Origin: an uncultured Planctomycetales bacterium
Lineage (GTDB): Bacteria > Omnitrophota > Gorgyraeia > Gygaellales > Profunditerraquicolaceae
Assembly: GCA_964603585.1 (NCBI GenBank)
Contig: CAZRVK010000001.1
Location: 271,856-335,855, forward strand
Length of the DNA: 64,000 bases
Reading direction: 5' to 3'
The position numbers were made by a program, and so were the translations under genes. Positions 3,804-28,626 of the stretch are shown piece by piece (position 1 is the first letter of the stretch; the number at the start of each line of letters is the position of its first letter). Below the pieces are notes generated by a model. The model searched no databases. It had not been told where the DNA came from and was given only the letters and a program-made list of their open reading frames with translations.

Positions 3804-4302
3804 ATCAGGGAATCCTTGATCTTCGGATAAGAAAATTCCTTAAGCACCCGCATCTTTATGCGTTCAGCCGATAAACGATATGAAGAAACCCCGGAGTTGT
3901 AAATATCGTTTGCAATCGTATCCCTAAGCTCCTGCAACTTAGCAATATGAGAATCCAATTGCGCCCGCGTATTCTCATTAAGCATAATACGCAACTGCGC
4001 CAGGTTCTTTAAAGCCTCGTTGGCACAACTTACCTGTTTTTTATGATTGGATCCGCGCAGCAATGCCTCGATAAGTTCATCCTGCCAGGATTTCCAATAA
4101 AGAAAATACTGACGGTAAAGTTCCTCCTTGGTAAGCGTTTGCTTATACTCCTCCGGGGCCAAAACCATCTCCACTTGGGGCAGGTTTTCTTTTTTGGGTT
4201 TACGGGTAAACTTGCGGACAAAAGCATCACATCCGCACAAGCCAAGTATTAATAAAAATCCGGACCCCAGTGATATTGTCCTTAAAACTTTATGATTCAA
4301 CA

Positions 4303-4303
<1 letters not shown>
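3800..4303 (-). CDS. Hypothetical lipoprotein (signal peptide with Cys-containing lipobox-like LGLCGC)
   Basis: Hydrophobic N-terminal leader ending in ..LILGLCGCD, with the rest coiled-coil-like. The stop overlaps the MBL gene start by 4 nt. Confidence 0.5.
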
Positions 4304-6303
<2,000 letters not shown>

Positions 6304-21388: not shown

Positions 21389-21955
21389 CTACCGCTTTAG
21401 CAAAATATCGAATTCTAAATTCACCCTTCCGGAAGGCCCCTTTAAACCTAAAGTAGTGTTCTTGAGGGTATGGCTAATAATATATACAAAAAAAACATCG
21501 TTTCTTCGCTCCATCACGGTAAGGCTTATGCCATCAACCGCAACCGAGGCTTTTGGCAAAAGATACCTAATGAATTTAGCCGGGACCGCGATCTCAAAAG
21601 CACGATTGCCCTGACGGATCATACTCTGGCGGATTATCCCCAGGCAGTCAATATGCCCGGTAACAAAATGCCCGGAAATACGATCTCCCAATTTTAAAGC
21701 GGGTTCTAAATTGACCTTATCAGATATTCTTAAAGCACCAAGATTGGTGCTTTTAGCTGTTTCCGGCATCACCTCAAAAACAAGCGTGCCGTAAGATACT
21801 TTTACCAAAGTCAGACAAACACCGTTTACTGCAATACTATCCCCTACCAAAGCGCCCTGACAAACACCGGATGATGCCACTTCCAGTAAAATCATACTGG
21901 AGCGCCGAGATACCATTTTCACTAAAGCCAGTTCCTGCACAATTCCGCTAAACAT
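21389..21955 (-). CDS. ribE: Riboflavin synthase (alpha subunit)
   Basis: MFSGIV start and the two lumazine-binding repeats. Overlaps the ribD stop. Confidence 0.85.
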   Translation of the reverse strand: MFSGIVQELALVKMVSRRSSMILLEVASSGVCQGALVGDSIAVNGVCLTLVKVSYGTLVFEVMPETAKSTNLGALRISDKVNLEPALKLGDRISGHFVTGHIDCLGIIRQSMIRQGNRAFEIAVPAKFIRYLLPKASVAVDGISLTVMERRNDVFFVYIISHTLKNTTLGLKGPSGRVNLEFDILLKR

Positions 21956-23036
21956 ATGCCTCGAAAAGAAAATCTTCCCCGATACGCCGCAGTTTAATTT
22001 CTTTTAGTTTAAATGCCTTCTCTACCCTTAATATCCCCTCTCCCATAACCGAACTTATTGCGGACTTGCCTCCGATGATCTTAGGGCTGACGAAGAATAA
22101 TATCCGGTCTACCAGTCTTTCATCAAATAAGCTTCCAATCAATGTTCCTCCTCCCTCCACAAGGATATTGCTTATCCCTAAAGAGGCGATTTTCTTCATC
22201 ATATCTTTGAGGTTTATCTGCCCGTTTTTTTCTTTAACCTGCATTACCCGGGCCTGGTTCGACAATACCTGGCGGTTTTGTGTTAGTTGTCCAGAAGATA
22301 CCGGTAAAGTAACGATAATCACTTCCGATGAACCAGAAAATATTTTCGCACAAGCAGGAGTACTTAGCTGGCTGTCCACAATAATCTTTACCGGGTGCCG
22401 TTTAGAAAACCAGGCATCTAATTTCGGGTCATCCCGCAAAACAGTATTTACCCCTACCATTATCGCATCAAACCCGGCACGCAAGCGATGCGCATAAGCC
22501 CGCGAGCGGTCAGAAGTTATCCATTTTGAATCACCGGACCTGGTTGCGATCTTGCCATCCAGCGACTCGGCAACTTTTACCGTAACAAAAGGCATCCGGG
22601 TAGTGATATATTTTATAAAGACCTCATTCATTTTCTTGAGTTTATCCTCTAAACAACCCACAGACACCTTAATACTATTTTCTTTTAAAACCGCAATCCC
22701 CTTACCGTTATTCAAAGGATTTGGATCAATCATACCGATAATGACCTCTTTAATCCCGCTTTTAATTACCGTATCGACACAAGGCGGAGTACGGCCAAAA
22801 TGCGTACAGGGCTCCAGAGTAACATAAAGCACCGCGCCTTGGGCAAGTTTTCCAGCTTCAGCGATTGCACCGACTTCAGCATGAGCCAATCCTGCCTGTT
22901 CATGATAACCACACCCAACAATACGACCGTTTTTTACTACCAGAGCGCCAACCATCGGGTTCGGCGCAGTTTTTCCCTTGCCTTTAAGGGCCAAGCGCAT
23001 GGCTAAATTCATATAATACTCATGGTTCCTCTTCAT
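21948..23036 (-). CDS. ribD: Bifunctional diaminohydroxyphosphoribosylaminopyrimidine deaminase / 5-amino-6-(5-phosphoribosylamino)uracil reductase
   Basis: CMP/dCMP deaminase zinc motifs (HAEV..PCTHFGRTPPC) plus a RibD_C reductase domain. Confidence 0.9.
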   Translation of the reverse strand: MKRNHEYYMNLAMRLALKGKGKTAPNPMVGALVVKNGRIVGCGYHEQAGLAHAEVGAIAEAGKLAQGAVLYVTLEPCTHFGRTPPCVDTVIKSGIKEVIIGMIDPNPLNNGKGIAVLKENSIKVSVGCLEDKLKKMNEVFIKYITTRMPFVTVKVAESLDGKIATRSGDSKWITSDRSRAYAHRLRAGFDAIMVGVNTVLRDDPKLDAWFSKRHPVKIIVDSQLSTPACAKIFSGSSEVIIVTLPVSSGQLTQNRQVLSNQARVMQVKEKNGQINLKDMMKKIASLGISNILVEGGGTLIGSLFDERLVDRILFFVSPKIIGGKSAISSVMGEGILRVEKAFKLKEIKLRRIGEDFLFEAYV

Positions 23037-23057: not shown

Positions 23058-23909
23058 CTAACCCCGGGCGGCCGATTTTAATCCTTCTACGAATTGATAC
23101 GGCAACTTGACCAAACCAATCTTTATATCCGGTTTTGCCTTACCATGGCAATCAGAACCGCCAGTAACTAAAAGGTCATATTCCTTTGCTAATTCAAGAT
23201 ACCGGTTGATCATCGATTGCGTATGTTCCGGATAATACACCTCAAGCCCCATGATACCGAAATCAACAAAATGCCGGATCATTTCATCGTTCCTTAAAAG
23301 ATACGGATGGGCTAAAACCGCAACCCCTCCGATCCCCCGGATCAACTGAATAGCCTCTAAGGGGGAAAACCTGAAACCACAAACATACGCAGGAGATTTA
23401 TCCCCGATATATCTCTGGAACGCTTCCGAGGTAGAACCGACAAATCCATCTTTTACCATTGCCCGGGCAATATGCAACCGGCCAACGGTGCCATCTCCTC
23501 CTATTTCAAACACCGATTCAGCTTTAAGCTTTATCCCCAGGCATTTCAGTTTATCCACCATTTCATACACACGAGCAATCCGGTTTTGCCGCAATAAAGC
23601 AAGCTTGCTCCTTAGATCGCCATTTGCCGGATCAAAACAATACCCCAGGATATGCACCTCTACCCCATTATATTCAGAACTTAACTCGATCCCGGGAACT
23701 ACCTCTATACCGAATTCCCGGGCCGCCGCAACCGCAGGGGTAATCCCTTCAATAGTATCGTGATCTACTATCGAGACCGCGGACAAGCCTGCTTTAACCG
23801 CTTTTTTTATCAACTCTTCCGGGGTAAAGGTACCGTCTGAAAACACGGTATGCAAATGCAAATCGGCAAATTTTACTTTTTCATCCTGCCGTTTGTTATT
23901 TGGCTTCAT
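23058..23909 (-). CDS. PHP-family (polymerase/histidinol-phosphatase-like) metal-dependent phosphoesterase embedded in the rib operon
   Basis: N-terminal DLHLHTVFSDG motif, 283 aa. Translationally coupled to nusB (4-nt overlap). Confidence 0.75.
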   Translation of the reverse strand: MKPNNKRQDEKVKFADLHLHTVFSDGTFTPEELIKKAVKAGLSAVSIVDHDTIEGITPAVAAAREFGIEVVPGIELSSEYNGVEVHILGYCFDPANGDLRSKLALLRQNRIARVYEMVDKLKCLGIKLKAESVFEIGGDGTVGRLHIARAMVKDGFVGSTSEAFQRYIGDKSPAYVCGFRFSPLEAIQLIRGIGGVAVLAHPYLLRNDEMIRHFVDFGIMGLEVYYPEHTQSMINRYLELAKEYDLLVTGGSDCHGKAKPDIKIGLVKLPYQFVEGLKSAARG

Positions 23910-24325
23910 TGCCTTCCTTTTTCCTGTTTGATCTTATCGAGTATGCCGTTTACGAACTTTCCCGCTTCCTGACCGGAATATTTCTTTGCCAGATCCACGG
24001 CTTCATTGATCGATACCTTGGGGGGAATATCACTGCGCATGATCAGTTCATAGCAGCCCAAACGCAGGACATTGCGATCAACCACCGCCATACGCTTAAG
24101 CTGCCAGTTAGTTGCATACTCGGATATTTGTTTATCAATGCTCGCCAGATTCTCTCCCACCCCTTTTACCAACTCAACAGTAAAAACCTTGACCTGATTA
24201 TCAATCCCTTCCTGAATATGAGTGGACCAAAAATTATCAAGGCTGGCATCACAAGGATCATGGGTAATATCCATCTGATAAAGTATCTGCAAAGCGAACT
24301 CGCGTGCTTGTGTGCGTTTTCTCAT
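23906..24325 (-). CDS. nusB: Transcription antitermination factor NusB
   Basis: 139 aa, AREFALQILYQ start typical of NusB. Confidence 0.85.
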   Translation of the reverse strand: MRKRTQAREFALQILYQMDITHDPCDASLDNFWSTHIQEGIDNQVKVFTVELVKGVGENLASIDKQISEYATNWQLKRMAVVDRNVLRLGCYELIMRSDIPPKVSINEAVDLAKKYSGQEAGKFVNGILDKIKQEKGRQ

Positions 24326-24346: not shown

Positions 24347-24814
24347 TTATTTGATTTGGGTTAATAAATTCGCCATTTCAATAGCGTTTACCGCCGCATC
24401 CCTTCCTTTATTGCCATCTTTAGTGCCTGCGCGCTCGATTGCCTGCTCAATCGTGTCTGCTGTAATCACTCCAAAAACTACGGGTAATCCAGTATCCAAA
24501 GAAACGCTGGCGATACCTTTGGCAACCTCCGCAGAAACATATTCAAAATGAGGAGTACTACCACGGATTACCGTGCCTAAACAAATCAGGGCATCATAAG
24601 ATCTAGTTTTTGCAAGTTTTAGAGCAACAAGCGGTATTTCAAAAGCACCGGGAACCCAGGTAACCGACAAATCCTTATCATCTGCTCCATGGCGCAATAA
24701 GGTATCCAGGCATCCGCTCAACAACTCCTTAGTGATCAAATCATTGAACCTGCTGGCTACAATCGCAAACCTTTTGCCTTTAGCTATAAGATTGCCTTCG
24801 ATTCTCTTTGACAT
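24347..24814 (-). CDS. ribH: 6,7-dimethyl-8-ribityllumazine synthase
   Basis: 155 aa with the FAIVASRFN signature. Confidence 0.9.
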
Positions 24815-24824
24815 ACTCCCTCCT

Positions 24825-26033
24825 TTATATTGTTAAATTATGCCCCATCTTTTCTTTTTTAGTCTTTAAATACCTTAAGTTTGATGGATTCGGCGGGATC
24901 TCTAAAGGGACCCTCTCTACTACACGTAAACCATAACCTTCCAAACCAACGATCTTACAAGGATTGTTCGTTAACAGACGAATATTCTTTAACCCCAGAT
25001 CCACCAGTATCTGTGCACCAATACCATAATCTCTCAAATCAGGTGCAAACCCCAAAGCCTGATTGGCCTCAACCGTATCCATCCCTTTATCCTGCAAGCT
25101 ATAAGCCCTGATCTTCTCTGTTAAGCCAATTCCCCGCCCTTCCTGATTCATATATAAAATGACTCCGCGTCCTTCTTTCTCAATAACCTGCATAGCCTTT
25201 TGCAGCTGACGGCCGCAATCACACCTCAATGAATTAAAAACATCACCCGTTAAACACTCGGAATGCACCCTAACCAAAACACCTTCTTGAGTCAGGTCCC
25301 CCATGGTCAGGACAGTGTGGACTTGAGTATTAATCAAATCCTTATACAGGATCAAATTAAAAGTCCCATATTCGGTCGGTAATGTGGTGGACGCTACTTT
25401 CTCAACCAGTTTTTCCAGCCGGCGGCGGTATTCGATCAGACTTTCAATCGAACAAATCTTAAGCTTATGCTGCCTGGAAAACTCGATCAATTGAGGCAGC
25501 CGTGCCATCGTACCATCATCATTCATGATCTCACAAATGACACCCGCAGGATAAAGACCCGCTAAACGCATTAGATCTACAGTTGCTTCGGTATGGCCTG
25601 CCCTTACCAAGACACCGCCATTACGCGCCTTTAGAGGAAAAGTATGCCCGGGACGGATCAAATCCTCCGGTTTTGCTTGAGGGCTGATCAAAACTTCAAT
25701 CGTGCGTGCGCGGTCATACGCAGAGATCCCTGTAGTTGTACCTAATGCGGCATCTACCGAAATCATCCAAGCGGTAGAAAACTGGTCTTTCTTACGCCAG
25801 GAATGCTTGTCCGTAACCATTGGATCCAAATCCAAGCTTCTTAACCTTGCCTCTTCCATAGGGACACAAATAAGCCCGCGTCCAAATTTAGCCATGAAAT
25901 TTATATCTTCCGGGCGCGCAAAAGAAGCCGCCATCAACAAATCTCCTTCATTTTCGCGGCCTTCATCATCCACAACCACTACCATACGGCCATGCTTTAA
26001 ATCTTCTAAGATCTCCGGAATAGTATTGAACAT
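24825..26033 (-). CDS. ribBA: Bifunctional 3,4-dihydroxy-2-butanone-4-phosphate synthase / GTP cyclohydrolase II
   Basis: DHBP synthase ([14 protein letters not shown]) plus GTP cyclohydrolase II (CxCxxC..). Start chosen at the MFNTIPEIL Met because it has the better RBS (AAGGAAAG). The listed ORF begins 9 codons upstream at 26060. Confidence 0.85.
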
Positions 26034-26103
26034 GCTCTTTCCTTTGTTTTGTCCGATCATAAAACACTATCTGCTCAATAAACACCTGCGTACAACAATC
26101 AAT

Positions 26104-26378
26104 AAAAAAGCCCGAACATAATCTTCGGGCATACGCAGCTGGTTATCTTCTCTCATCTGGACTTTATCGCAAAAAGCATCAAAGCTTGTTCCAGGCGCTA
26201 TTTAAGGCGCCGGAGTTTCGCTTTTTGCTCAACTCCCGGCTTTATTTGATACGCCGGAATTTCGCTTTTTGCTCAACCATCGGCTCTGGAATATTACCAG
26301 ATCAATCCGCCAATAAAATATCGGAGGATTCGCGGGCTTAACCGCCGGTCAGGAATTACACCTGCCCCGAAGACTAAC
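26104..26378 (-). promoter_or_regulatory. FMN riboswitch (RFN element) with its terminator, in the leader of the rib operon
   Basis: Minus strand reads ..UCUUCGGGGCAGGUGUAAUUCCUGACCGGCGGUUAAGCCCGCGA...GGUAAUAUUCCAGAGCCGAUGG...AAAGUCCAGAUGAGAGAAG, then a hairpin (GCCCGAAGAUUAUGUUCGGGC) and a U-tract. The conserved P1-P5 cores match the RFN consensus. A large insertion lies in the variable P6 region. Confidence 0.85.
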
Positions 26379-26385
26379 TTTATTT

Positions 26386-26413
26386 AGTTTACCATAAAAT
26401 CCCGGCTTGTCAA
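26386..26413 (-). promoter_or_regulatory. Sigma70-type promoter for the rib operon (TTGACA-16-TGgTAAACT), placed so the transcript starts at the first riboswitch nucleotide
   Basis: Read on the minus strand immediately upstream of the riboswitch. Confidence 0.5.
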
Positions 26414-26455: not shown

Positions 26456-26484
26456 TTGACCAAACTTCATCTAAAAGCTATAAT
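26456..26484 (+). promoter_or_regulatory. Consensus sigma70 promoter TTGACC-17-TATAAT, 7 nt upstream of the cinA-C ATG. This implies a leaderless mRNA
   Basis: Seen in sequence. The listed ORF's TTG start is the -35 box itself. Confidence 0.6.
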
Positions 26485-26491
26485 AATATTT

Positions 26492-26965
26492 ATGCAAAAA
26501 CTCGTAAATCAAATACACCGCCAGCTTACCAGGCAAGGAAAAACTATCGCCATAGCTGAATCCTGCACCGGAGGCCTATTATCAAGCCTGCTTACCAGCC
26601 TTGCAGGAAGTTCTAAATTCTTTATTTTAGGAGCAATTACTTATTCTAACAAAGCAAAATCCAGGGTACTAAAAATCCCTTCAACGCTAATTAAAGAAAA
26701 AGGCGCAGTTTCCCGGGCAATTGCCATAAGAATGAGCCGCCGGATACGTAAAATAGCCGGTTCTGACCTTGCAATCAGTATCACCGGGATCGCCGGGCCT
26801 TCCGGAGGAAGCAGGCGTAAACCCGTAGGCACGGTTTTTATATCTATAGACTCTAAGGTAAAGAACCTGTGTAAAAAGTTCCGTTTTAATGGCAGCCGTA
26901 CTATTATCCGGAAGAAATCCGCACTTAAAGCCTTGGAACTATTGAAAAAAAACTTATCCGGCTAA
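26492..26965 (+). CDS. CinA C-terminal domain protein (nicotinamide-nucleotide amidohydrolase PncC-like)
   Basis: MQKLVNQIHRQL..IAIAESCTGGLLSS signature of the CinA_C domain. Start moved to the first ATG after the promoter. Confidence 0.75.
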   Translation: MQKLVNQIHRQLTRQGKTIAIAESCTGGLLSSLLTSLAGSSKFFILGAITYSNKAKSRVLKIPSTLIKEKGAVSRAIAIRMSRRIRKIAGSDLAISITGIAGPSGGSRRKPVGTVFISIDSKVKNLCKKFRFNGSRTIIRKKSALKALELLKKNLSG

Positions 26966-26998
26966 CAGCAAACTGCCGAATCATTGAACGCCTGTCTT

Positions 26999-27571
26999 AT
27001 GAGAGCATTTATCGCAATTGATTTGCCAAAAGAGATCAAGGATAACCTATGCCTTGTACAGGAAAACTTTAAAAAACTTCCCGCCAGGATCAATTGGGTA
27101 AACCCGGATAACATCCACTTGACCCTAAGGTTCCTGGGCGAAATAGAGCAAAGCCAAACTGATAAGATCATTACCGCTATAAAAGGATCTGCATTATTAA
27201 CCAGTCCTTTTCAGATAAACCTATCATCTATCTCGGTTTTTCCCGATACTGCTCTGCCGCGTGTAATCTGGATAGGAATAAATTCCGGAAATGAGCGGAT
27301 ACAGGAAATCTACCGAAATCTGGGAACTAAACTAAAATCACTGGGGATCCCGGAGGAAAGCCGGCAATTCTTGCCGCATATCACCATCGCAAGGATAAAA
27401 ACCATCTTAAAGAAAAAAGAATTCCTCATGGAGTTAAATAACCTAAAAGACACATCCCCAAAGGTAAATTCATATTTCCAGGCAAGAAAAATAACTTTGT
27501 TTAAAAGCAGGCTTACCGCTAAAGGAGCGGTTTACGAAATAATAAAAGAATTGGATCTATTAGGCCATTAG
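26999..27571 (+). CDS. thpR: RNA 2',3'-cyclic phosphodiesterase (2H phosphoesterase, ThpR/LigT family)
   Basis: Two H-x-T/S-x motifs (IHLTLRFLG; PHITIARI). Start chosen at MRAFIAIDLP. Confidence 0.75.
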   Translation: MRAFIAIDLPKEIKDNLCLVQENFKKLPARINWVNPDNIHLTLRFLGEIEQSQTDKIITAIKGSALLTSPFQINLSSISVFPDTALPRVIWIGINSGNERIQEIYRNLGTKLKSLGIPEESRQFLPHITIARIKTILKKKEFLMELNNLKDTSPKVNSYFQARKITLFKSRLTAKGAVYEIIKELDLLGH

Positions 27572-27573
27572 AA

Positions 27574-28038
27574 CTAAAACTTAACCAGCAACCTTAACAC
27601 AACCTGCAGGATAAGATTCGCATACACGCCAGCGACCAGGTCATCCAGCATGATTCCCAGCCCGCCTTTTAATTTTTCTAATCTTGCCGCCGGGTATGGT
27701 TTTAATGTATCCAGGATGCGAAAAAGCAAAAAAGCGATGATTACTATTTTCAGGGAATAAAACGGCAGGAATGATAAACTAAGGAGCATACCGCATACTT
27801 CATCAATAACCACATATTTCGGGTCTTTTTGTGCAAATACAACCTCTGCCTTGCTGCTGGCCCAAAAACCCAGGAATACCAAAAATAAAGTACTTAGAGT
27901 ATGAACAATCAGGTTTCCGCAGACAAGATAAAATACGATCACCCCGGCCAAACTGCCGAATGTCCCGGGGATCATTGGGAAATATCCGGAATAAAAAAAA
28001 GTACTGATCAGTTTTACCAGTGATGCTGGGATATTCAC
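27574..28038 (-). CDS. pgpA: Phosphatidylglycerophosphatase A
   Basis: 154 aa membrane protein with the PgpA signature (GTFGSLAG..IDEVCG). Confidence 0.75.
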   Translation of the reverse strand: MNIPASLVKLISTFFYSGYFPMIPGTFGSLAGVIVFYLVCGNLIVHTLSTLFLVFLGFWASSKAEVVFAQKDPKYVVIDEVCGMLLSLSFLPFYSLKIVIIAFLLFRILDTLKPYPAARLEKLKGGLGIMLDDLVAGVYANLILQVVLRLLVKF

Positions 28039-28047
28039 GGATTAATA

Positions 28048-28626
28048 TTAAAACTTAGTGATGATCTTGCGGTTATTCCAAAGATAGTTCAAACCGGAAT
28101 ACAATGTCATTCCTACCGTAACCAGCATAAGAAAATATATTCCTTGGCGGAAGAATTTTTCAGACGCAGGGTTCCAGGTAAAAAACACTAGCATGGTTTC
28201 TTTTAAGACGATAAAACCCAGTATCAAAAATATCACCGACATTTGAGCAACCGTTTTATGTTTACCGGCCTTGCTTGCAGATAAAACCTTGCCCTTATTC
28301 AAGGCAAATAAACGCAAGGAAGTGATCAGTATTTCTCTAAAGATAATGATCACAAACATCCAGGCCTCAATGATCTGCATCTGGACAAACGCCGCAAAAG
28401 CGGCCAATACCAGGATCTTATCGGCAATCGGATCCATCAATTTGCCGAAATCAGTCACCATGTTCTTTTTTTGAGCGATCCTGCCGTCTAAAAAATCAGA
28501 AAGCGCGGCAAAAATGAATATCGCCAGTGCCAACACCTTAGCCCAAAGCCCGTGCACAAACAGAAAAAACATAAAAACAAACGTAAGTACGATCCGCAGC
28601 ATTGTCAAACGATTAGCAAGATTCAT
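28048..28626 (-). CDS. pgsA: CDP-diacylglycerol--glycerol-3-phosphate 3-phosphatidyltransferase
   Basis: CDP-alcohol phosphotransferase motif (DFLDGRIAQ..G..DPIADK). Confidence 0.85.
   Translation of the reverse strand: MNLANRLTMLRIVLTFVFMFFLFVHGLWAKVLALAIFIFAALSDFLDGRIAQKKNMVTDFGKLMDPIADKILVLAAFAAFVQMQIIEAWMFVIIIFREILITSLRLFALNKGKVLSASKAGKHKTVAQMSVIFLILGFIVLKETMLVFFTWNPASEKFFRQGIYFLMLVTVGMTLYSGLNYLWNNRKIITKF

Follow-up and report, generated by a model that had tools for sequence, protein, structure and literature searches.

A COG0613-type PHP phosphoesterase coupled to NusB in the riboflavin operon of Omnitrophota and fused to NusB in anammox bacteria

A PHP gene between nusB and ribD

Here, we describe a gene for a PHP-family phosphoesterase that lies within the riboflavin (rib) operon of an uncultured bacterium classified by GTDB as Omnitrophota; the names carried by near-identical and related proteins likewise point to "Candidatus Omnitrophota". 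The operon was recovered on a 64,000-nucleotide stretch of contig CAZRVK010000001.1 (assembly GCA_964603585.1, positions 271,856 to 335,855), hereafter the window, in which all coordinates are counted unless another locus is named. It occupies the minus strand, and the PHP gene overlaps nusB, the gene in front of it. Comparison of gene neighborhoods across related loci suggests that the conserved functional partner of the PHP enzyme is more likely NusB than the riboflavin enzymes. All six genes of the operon pass Pfam, and the five other than PHP also pass their NCBIfam cut-offs.

24825 to 26060, minus strand: ribBA, bifunctional DHBP synthase and GTP cyclohydrolase II (NF006803, 608.6 bits against a cut-off of 569)
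24347 to 24814, minus strand: ribH, lumazine synthase (TIGR00114, 183.4 bits against a cut-off of 84.6)
23906 to 24325, minus strand: nusB, transcription antitermination factor NusB (TIGR01951, 147.7 bits against a cut-off of 88.35)
23906 to 23909, minus strand: ATGA, overlap of the nusB stop codon and the PHP start codon, read from the sequence (translational coupling)
23058 to 23909, minus strand: PHP phosphoesterase of COG0613 type, 283 amino acids (Pfam PF02811, 50.1 bits against a gathering score of 26.4)
21948 to 23036, minus strand: ribD, deaminase and reductase (TIGR00326, 369.6 bits against a cut-off of 156.35)
21389 to 21955, minus strand: ribE, riboflavin synthase, the last gene of the operon (Pfam and NCBIfam cut-offs passed)

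The gene order ribBA-ribH-nusB-PHP-ribD-ribE, the PHP-family identity of the product, and the 4-nt overlap that couples its translation to nusB had all been proposed in a first-pass annotation of this DNA, and open reading frames (ORFs), Pfam, and NCBIfam agree with them. The distance from PHP to ribD, which was put at 22 nt, is 21 nt in the sequence, counted between the PHP stop codon (TAG, 23058-23060) and the ribD ATG at 23036; this spacer contains AAGGAAG. Neither the minus-strand orientation nor the flavin mononucleotide (FMN) riboswitch described below figured in that annotation. The other spacings are equally tight, with 10 nt between ribBA and ribH, 21 nt between ribH and nusB, and an 8-nt overlap of ribD and ribE. 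A Shine-Dalgarno sequence (AGGAAGG) stands just 5' of the PHP ATG, which is the sole usable start because no in-frame start codon precedes the catalytic DLHxH motif. A start further downstream, which would abolish the overlap, was rejected: Val12 is encoded by GTA, and the next TTG is that of Leu17, inside the invariant DLHxH.

We followed the arrangement in a GTDB scan with one genome per species, which returned 80 loci, and in a metagenome scan that added approximately 50 more. As far as contigs reach, ribBA-ribH-nusB-PHP-ribD-ribE is kept in 76 of the 80 GTDB loci, with PHP proteins 45-66% identical. Among 160 related loci, the six-gene array is complete in 78, and nusB directly precedes PHP in 122. 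Spacing could be measured for 67 nusB-PHP pairs, 40 of which overlap, 26 of them by exactly 4 nt. This arrangement is far beyond chance, the same order persisting in 78 arrays with PHP identity down to approximately 45%. The linkage of PHP to rib genes, which the first-pass annotation had relied on, is conserved in more than 100 Omnitrophota-type loci and is not unique to one genome. Across the 160 loci and further loci obtained from a protein look-up, PHP adjoins rib genes only where nusB stands directly upstream, the sole exception being six loci that open partway through PHP, at the edge of a contig.

The operon is preceded by signals that point to flavin control.

26252 to 26379, minus strand: FMN riboswitch aptamer (RF00050) heading the operon, 67.8 bits against a gathering score of 66.2, E 3e-13
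26110 to 26130, minus strand: terminator-like hairpin with T-run between aptamer and ribBA, GCCCGAAGATTATGTTCGGGC TTTTTT
26386 to 26413, minus strand: promoter-like site upstream of the riboswitch, TTGACA, 16 nt, TAAACT, with TG before the second hexamer

The aptamer score barely exceeds its threshold (67.8 against 66.2); of nine related Omnitrophota loci tested, eight likewise carry an FMN riboswitch 5' of ribBA. The hairpin is probably the expression platform of the riboswitch. Since riboswitch and hairpin both precede ribBA, the whole unit, including nusB, is probably read from one FMN-controlled transcript. The promoter-like site is a consensus match only, such sites being no commoner in this region than in shuffled sequence. 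Between PHP and ribD, no second FMN riboswitch or other RNA element reached its gathering score, including in loci where this gap measures 226-540 nt. A 44-nt tandem duplication (two copies, 84% identical) at 26190-26277 overlaps the 3' end of the aptamer, with a 26-nt core, GTTGAGCAAAAAGCGAAA[T/C]TCCGGCG, at 26277-26252 and again at 26233-26208. Such a repeat may be no more than a duplication, or may serve the expression platform as a decoy for the 3' strand of the aptamer.

A COG0613-type phosphoesterase paired with, and fused to, NusB

The PHP gene product is a phosphoesterase of the COG0613 group, which comprises TrpH/YciV/RNase AM and Cv1693. Its top NCBIfam match is NF041577 (3',5'-nucleoside bisphosphate/pAp phosphatase; 192.9 bits, equivalog cut-off 400), followed by NF047791 (RNase RNM/AM; 155.8 bits, cut-off 375) and NF041661 (PhnPP, phosphoribosyl 1,2-cyclic phosphate 1,2-diphosphodiesterase; 113.6 bits, cut-off 500). 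No phn (C-P lyase) genes were found near the PHP gene. The HisJ-type histidinol-phosphatase model TIGR01856 matches in its N-terminal motif only (24.3 bits against a cut-off of 90.2). A sequence search of the PDB gave 3e0f as the best hit (E 6e-43), then 9etk, 2yb1, and 7ug9. An AlphaFold2 (AF2) model of the protein (pLDDT 91.5, pTM 0.88) was aligned by Foldseek to each of 3e0f, 9etk, and 2yb1 with a TM score of 0.84 over 263-279 columns, and displays a distorted (beta/alpha)7 PHP barrel with a helical insertion domain.

All nine ligands of the trinuclear metal site are present (H18, H20, D25, H50, E75, H86, H201, D253, and H255) and invariant across 22 Omnitrophota sequences. They align with H13, (H15), D20, H45, E72, H83, H198, D255, and H257 of Escherichia coli RNase AM. 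The His/Asp/Glu set, whose loss would have told against the first-pass proposal, is thus complete, and from these residues the enzyme is predicted to be catalytically intact. Roles of the pocket residues in this group are taken from PMC9410882: in E. coli RNase AM, R107, R110, R141, and F161 provide the 5'-phosphate pocket and base stacking, and in Cv1693 and RNase AM the base and 5'-phosphate of a nucleotide are held in this pocket during cleavage of a further, 3'-linked phosphate (PMC9410882). The equivalent R110, R113, R144, and F164 of the window protein are invariant in the 22 Omnitrophota sequences, in an alignment that takes in relatives from the NPL-UPA2-type clade introduced below, and in the NusB::PHP fusions.

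Three characterized or solved relatives provide the closest comparisons. BAD_1165 of Bifidobacterium adolescentis (3E0F/3O0F) is the nearest solved protein, at 36% identity; it shares the HGKxKP motif, differs in the loop after AH, and is described by structural genomics as a "putative metal-dependent phosphoesterase", beyond which we found no function ascribed to it. Cv1693 of Chromobacterium violaceum (2YB1, with Mn, AMP, and phosphate; NF041577) has the same fold and metal ligands at approximately 29% identity, and its R99, R102, R134, and H136 align with R110, R113, R144, and H146. The window protein lacks the GR that follows AHP in Cv1693; Cv1693, on the other hand, has no known linkage or fusion to NusB. 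RNase AM (Rnm, formerly YciV/TrpH; E. coli 7UG9, Vibrio cholerae 9ETK) has the family, the fold, and the Arg/Phe pocket in common with the window protein. It is a 5'-3' exoribonuclease that matures rRNA 5' ends, in E. coli those of 16S, 23S, and 5S rRNA (PMC7261194), and also acts as a diribonuclease and in removing flavin adenine dinucleotide (FAD) caps from RNA (deFADding). Its link to rRNA biogenesis matches a partnership with NusB, whereas its genomic partner is a different one: in E. coli K-12 (L172, region 4221-5719; loci of the comparison carry L numbers), rnm overlaps by 4 nt yciO, a gene for a putative RNA-binding protein. The gene is divergent from the neighboring trp operon, which is the source of the old and misleading name trpH. 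A neighbor-joining tree of 174 PHP sequences, built without support values and used descriptively, suggests that nusB-linked PHP proteins cluster with the fused ones and separately from proteobacterial RNase AM and Cv1693.

The pairing of nusB with PHP extends beyond the Omnitrophota. Two loci (L067 and L170) display the order ribD-ribE-ribBA-ribH-nusB-PHP, again with an ATGA overlap, and in a third (L163) this order is kept with a glycosyltransferase gene inserted before PHP. The gene in the ribD position encodes a deaminase domain only, of 179 amino acids (L067, 2489-3028; L170, 486-1025); the reductase of this lineage must be encoded elsewhere. In an NPL-UPA2-type clade, some of whose members are labelled Nitrospirae, nusB and PHP overlap by 17 nt among unrelated genes (L070, L161, and L162), and no rib genes were found near the pair in these loci.

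In "Candidatus Jettenia", both domains are encoded by a single ORF of 436 amino acids, with NusB at residues 15-139 and PHP from residue 168. A search with this fusion returned at least 120 clusters (at 90% identity) carrying both domains, 49-97% identical and spanning Brocadia, Kuenenia, Scalindua, Hypogeohydataceae, and Tripitaka. Five further fusion clusters, with 35-45% identity to that of Brocadia, came from searching the cluster representatives exhaustively. The fusion protein measures 420-475 amino acids across anammox bacteria and the deeper Brocadiia, its NusB domain passes TIGR01951 (the nusB equivalog), and PGAP calls it simply "NusB". The fusion sits between ribH and ftsY in all five loci examined, namely four from Brocadiales (L080 and L165-L167) and L171, which carries one of the five divergent fusions.

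L080, 5503 to 6813: NusB::PHP fusion gene
L165 to L167 and L171, 6001 to 7323 or 5001 to 6428: NusB::PHP fusion genes

NusB::PHP is a genuine and old "Rosetta-stone" fusion, whose covalent link keeps NusB and PHP in one place in the lineages that carry it. The enzyme family itself is already known; what we did not find in the literature searched is the conserved coupling to NusB and the fusion, and searches on NusB with a PHP domain and on TrpH with riboflavin or nusB returned nothing relevant. One phylogeny of COG0613 excluded proteins longer than 400 amino acids (PMC11528712), and NusB::PHP fusions would therefore have been removed from it.

Approximately 30 related PHP genes have neither nusB nor a rib gene as neighbor. 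Eight of these directly follow genes for RNase Y, RNase Y plus YmdB, YmdB, or a PIN-PhoH ATPase. The RNase Y and/or YmdB phosphoesterase contexts come from another lineage (L129, L144, L155, L156, and L159) and suggest an RNase Y-YmdB-PHP gene cluster for RNA decay, and the PIN-domain PhoH-like ATPases, of YlaK type, precede PHP in L126, L143, and L151. In two loci, a pair of PHP paralogues lies a few kilobases apart (L076, 6016-6846 and 8124-9011; L101, 3877-4665 and 5022-5813). Those of L076, a record labelled Hadarchaeum (an archaeon), adjoin an amidohydrolase gene; the second copy reads GGTNSHG, with a metal-ligand Asp replaced by Asn, and may be inactive or altered.

Candidate functions

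On balance, we lean toward the PHP protein being a nucleotide or RNA 3'-phosphoesterase partnered with NusB, acting as a 3'-phosphoesterase or as a 5'-3' exoribonuclease. As to its substrate, we infer that a nucleotide 5'-phosphate would be bound in the Arg pocket between barrel and helical insertion domain, and that the phosphoester on the 3'-oxygen of the bound nucleotide would be hydrolyzed. The outcome would be conversion of nucleoside 3',5'-bisphosphates (pNp) to nucleoside monophosphate and phosphate, and/or trimming of the 5' ends of 5'-monophosphorylated RNA. The enzyme may do so together with NusB; one possible setting is the BoxA/Nus complex, where the 5' leader or the 5' ends of rRNA precursors would be its target, although we are less sure of a processing role as specific as this.

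The position of PHP inside the rib operon can be read in the same terms, because PHP travels with nusB, and ribH-nusB is a long-standing pair. In Pseudomonas, autoregulation of nusB has been proposed to work through a boxA that lies 5' of ribH-nusB (PMC5725501). We propose that PHP entered the operon along with nusB, long placed behind ribH, and that an ancestral order ribD-ribE-ribBA-ribH-nusB-PHP, still kept in L067, L170, and (with its insertion) L163, would have been circularly permuted to ribBA-ribH-nusB-PHP-ribD-ribE in Omnitrophota.

A more specific version, in which the PHP protein is a previously unrecognized, lineage-specific accessory subunit of the NusB/BoxA machinery for rRNA antitermination and folding, is offered tentatively, as we think it possible but rather doubtful. 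NusB nucleates the rRNA Nus complex, of which the phosphatase-fold protein SuhB is a subunit (PMC5725501). In E. coli, SuhB is the fifth Nus factor and cooperates with NusB/NusE at the BoxA of rRNA transcripts (PMC5725501), a precedent for a "phosphatase" partner of NusB. The analogy is conceptual; SuhB has the fold of IMPase, not PHP, and no sequence relationship to the window protein. The PHP protein would then either be brought to the 5' leaders of nascent rRNA during transcription, as a nuclease or phosphatase, or be a counterpart of SuhB with a PHP fold. Omnitrophota and NPL-UPA2-type bacteria would have it as a separate, translationally coupled protein, and Brocadiia as part of the NusB::PHP fusion.

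Several observations weigh against a NusB-partnered nucleotide or RNA phosphoesterase, some of them on the side of the chemistry. The protein falls under every NCBIfam equivalog cut-off and shares only 30% identity with RNase AM of E. coli. After AHP its loop is shorter, with AHPY where E. coli has AHPGRY, so that the equivalent of R201 is absent (a gap of 2 residues in the HMMER alignment and 8 in BLASTP); anammox NusB::PHP fusions read AHPGL here. In E. coli, R201 contacts the scissile or product phosphate (PMC9410882), and with its equivalent lost, substrate handling may differ. Some of the relatives without nusB adjoin FTCD, amidohydrolase, or alanine racemase genes, none of which has to do with RNA.

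Other observations bear on the partnership itself. In an AF2 model of the Brocadia fusion, both domains are confident, while the linker (residues 134-151) is disordered, pTM is 0.64, and no fixed interface forms; the model depicts a flexible tether and not a docked NusB-PHP interface, and speaks neither for nor against contact between the two domains. A mirror-tree analysis of the 78 complete arrays gave partial correlations with PHP of 0.48 for ribBA, 0.38 for nusB, 0.16 for ribH, 0.14 for ribE, and -0.04 for ribD; it does not single out NusB as the coevolving partner and, not being discriminating, was not used. The Omnitrophota PHP gene sits in an operon headed by an FMN riboswitch, in the window as in 8 of the 9 loci tested. 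Finally, ribH is also nearby in Omnitrophota, Brocadiia, L067/L170, and L163, and a ribH-PHP link is separable from the nusB-PHP link only by the NPL-UPA2-type loci.

The best surviving alternative, which we nonetheless regard as unlikely, is a housekeeping pAp phosphatase or nanoRNase that substitutes for CysQ, NrnA, or Orn and has no tie to its neighbors, the adjacency to nusB and the fusion being harmless accidents. The top NCBIfam match is indeed a pAp phosphatase model, the pocket and the set of ligands are of the same kind as in Cv1693, and RNase AM homologues act as diribonucleases (PMC11528712). The many unrelated contexts of family members (FTCD, amidohydrolase, alanine racemase, CvpA) fit as well, as does the fusion linker predicted to be disordered and to leave no interface. 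Accidental adjacency is harder to reconcile with tight coupling by ATGA overlaps in at least three deeply separated groups and with a fusion kept down to 35% identity; neutral adjacency is not usually so persistent. The contexts without nusB are, moreover, enriched for RNA-processing genes.

From the association with rib genes, the first-pass annotation had put the PHP protein forward as the phosphatase for 5-amino-6-ribitylamino-2,4(1H,3H)-pyrimidinedione 5'-phosphate (ARPP), which would feed ARP to RibH and leave NusB a bystander. The linkage behind this proposal stood up, as shown above, but its interpretation is confounded by nusB and weakened by the pocket and by the RNA-gene neighbors of relatives, and we consider it improbable. 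PHP is kept between ribH-nusB and ribD-ribE in 78 complete arrays under an FMN riboswitch. Riboswitch co-regulation carries no weight for a riboflavin role, because it is equally true of nusB, and the same operon logic would make NusB a riboflavin enzyme, which it is not. The proximity of ribH, whose product would consume ARP, in Omnitrophota, Brocadiia, L067/L170, and L163 is likewise in line with the ARPP proposal; against this, no locus has PHP beside rib genes without nusB between them, contig-end cases apart, while nusB-PHP occurs without rib genes in L070 and L161/L162. A stable NusB fusion, 35-97% identical across Brocadiia, would have no rationale for a riboflavin enzyme, and close relatives in other lineages adjoin RNA-metabolism genes.

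The biochemistry of the family is similarly divided over an ARPP phosphatase. The PHP superfamily includes HisJ-type small-molecule monoesterases, the metal site is intact, and the substrate could have changed along with the loop after AHP. Yet the characterized COG0613 enzymes all act on nucleotide or ribose 3'/1,2-phosphoesters, and the invariant 5'-phosphate/base pocket suits substrates with two phosphates, such as pNp, 5'-monophosphorylated RNA, or phosphoribosyl 1,2-cyclic phosphate. ARPP, a monophosphate, does not fit this pocket, since its single phosphate would need to be the one bound by the metals. The step has no universal dedicated enzyme, so that a further family is plausible; known ARPP phosphatases belong to the HAD superfamily and, in Aquifex, to the histidine phosphatases and IMPases (PMC12051542, PMC13151069). 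These ARPP/ARAPDP phosphatases (HAD YigB, YbjI, YcsE, YitU, YwtE, and PyrP2; the histidine-family and IMPase enzymes of Aquifex) are phosphoesterases too, but none is of the PHP superfamily, and the window pocket instead suggests bis-phosphorylated nucleotide substrates. A PHP-type ARPP phosphatase would be new, as the 2025-2026 literature holds only HAD, histidine-phosphatase, and IMPase examples, and would add a fourth enzyme superfamily to one still poorly assigned step of riboflavin synthesis.

A flavin-linked RNA function, in which deFADding would explain the place of PHP in an FMN-controlled operon, is pure conjecture to which we give almost no credence: RNase AM does degrade FAD-capped RNA with release of intact FAD (PMC9410882), and the PHP gene does lie in a riboswitch-controlled flavin operon, but deFADding could not be told apart from ordinary 5'-P exonuclease activity (PMC9410882), and the nusB link outside rib operons would go unexplained.

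Operon surroundings and implications

Beyond ribE, the window continues with a convergent gene for a CBS-domain protein. A tRNA gene follows ribE by approximately 60-120 nt in most Omnitrophota loci tested (L003, L013, L028, L047, L052, L060, L062, and L072). The nearest tRNA gene of the window (19403-19476) lies approximately 1.9 kb from the end of the rib operon, with two plus-strand genes in between, encoding the CBS-domain protein and a double-receiver response regulator. At the other end, genes for CinA and a LigT-type 2',3'-cyclic phosphodiesterase (2'-5' RNA ligase family) are placed divergently from the operon (26456-27571, plus strand), and pgpA and pgsA lie upstream on the same strand as the operon (27574-28626, minus strand). 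The E. coli gene order is nusB-thiL-pgpA, and the pgpA near the rib operon of the window may be a remnant of an old synteny.

For annotation, the case holds a warning: guilt-by-association with a rib operon would wrongly implicate whatever travels with nusB, much as RNase AM was once named TrpH. The NusB::PHP fusion is a natural "Rosetta-stone" that makes the proposed partnership directly testable in vitro. If the partnership is functional, the PHP protein would be a new player in rRNA transcription and maturation in Omnitrophota, in anammox and other Brocadiia, and in NPL-UPA2, lineages that are large and mostly uncultured.

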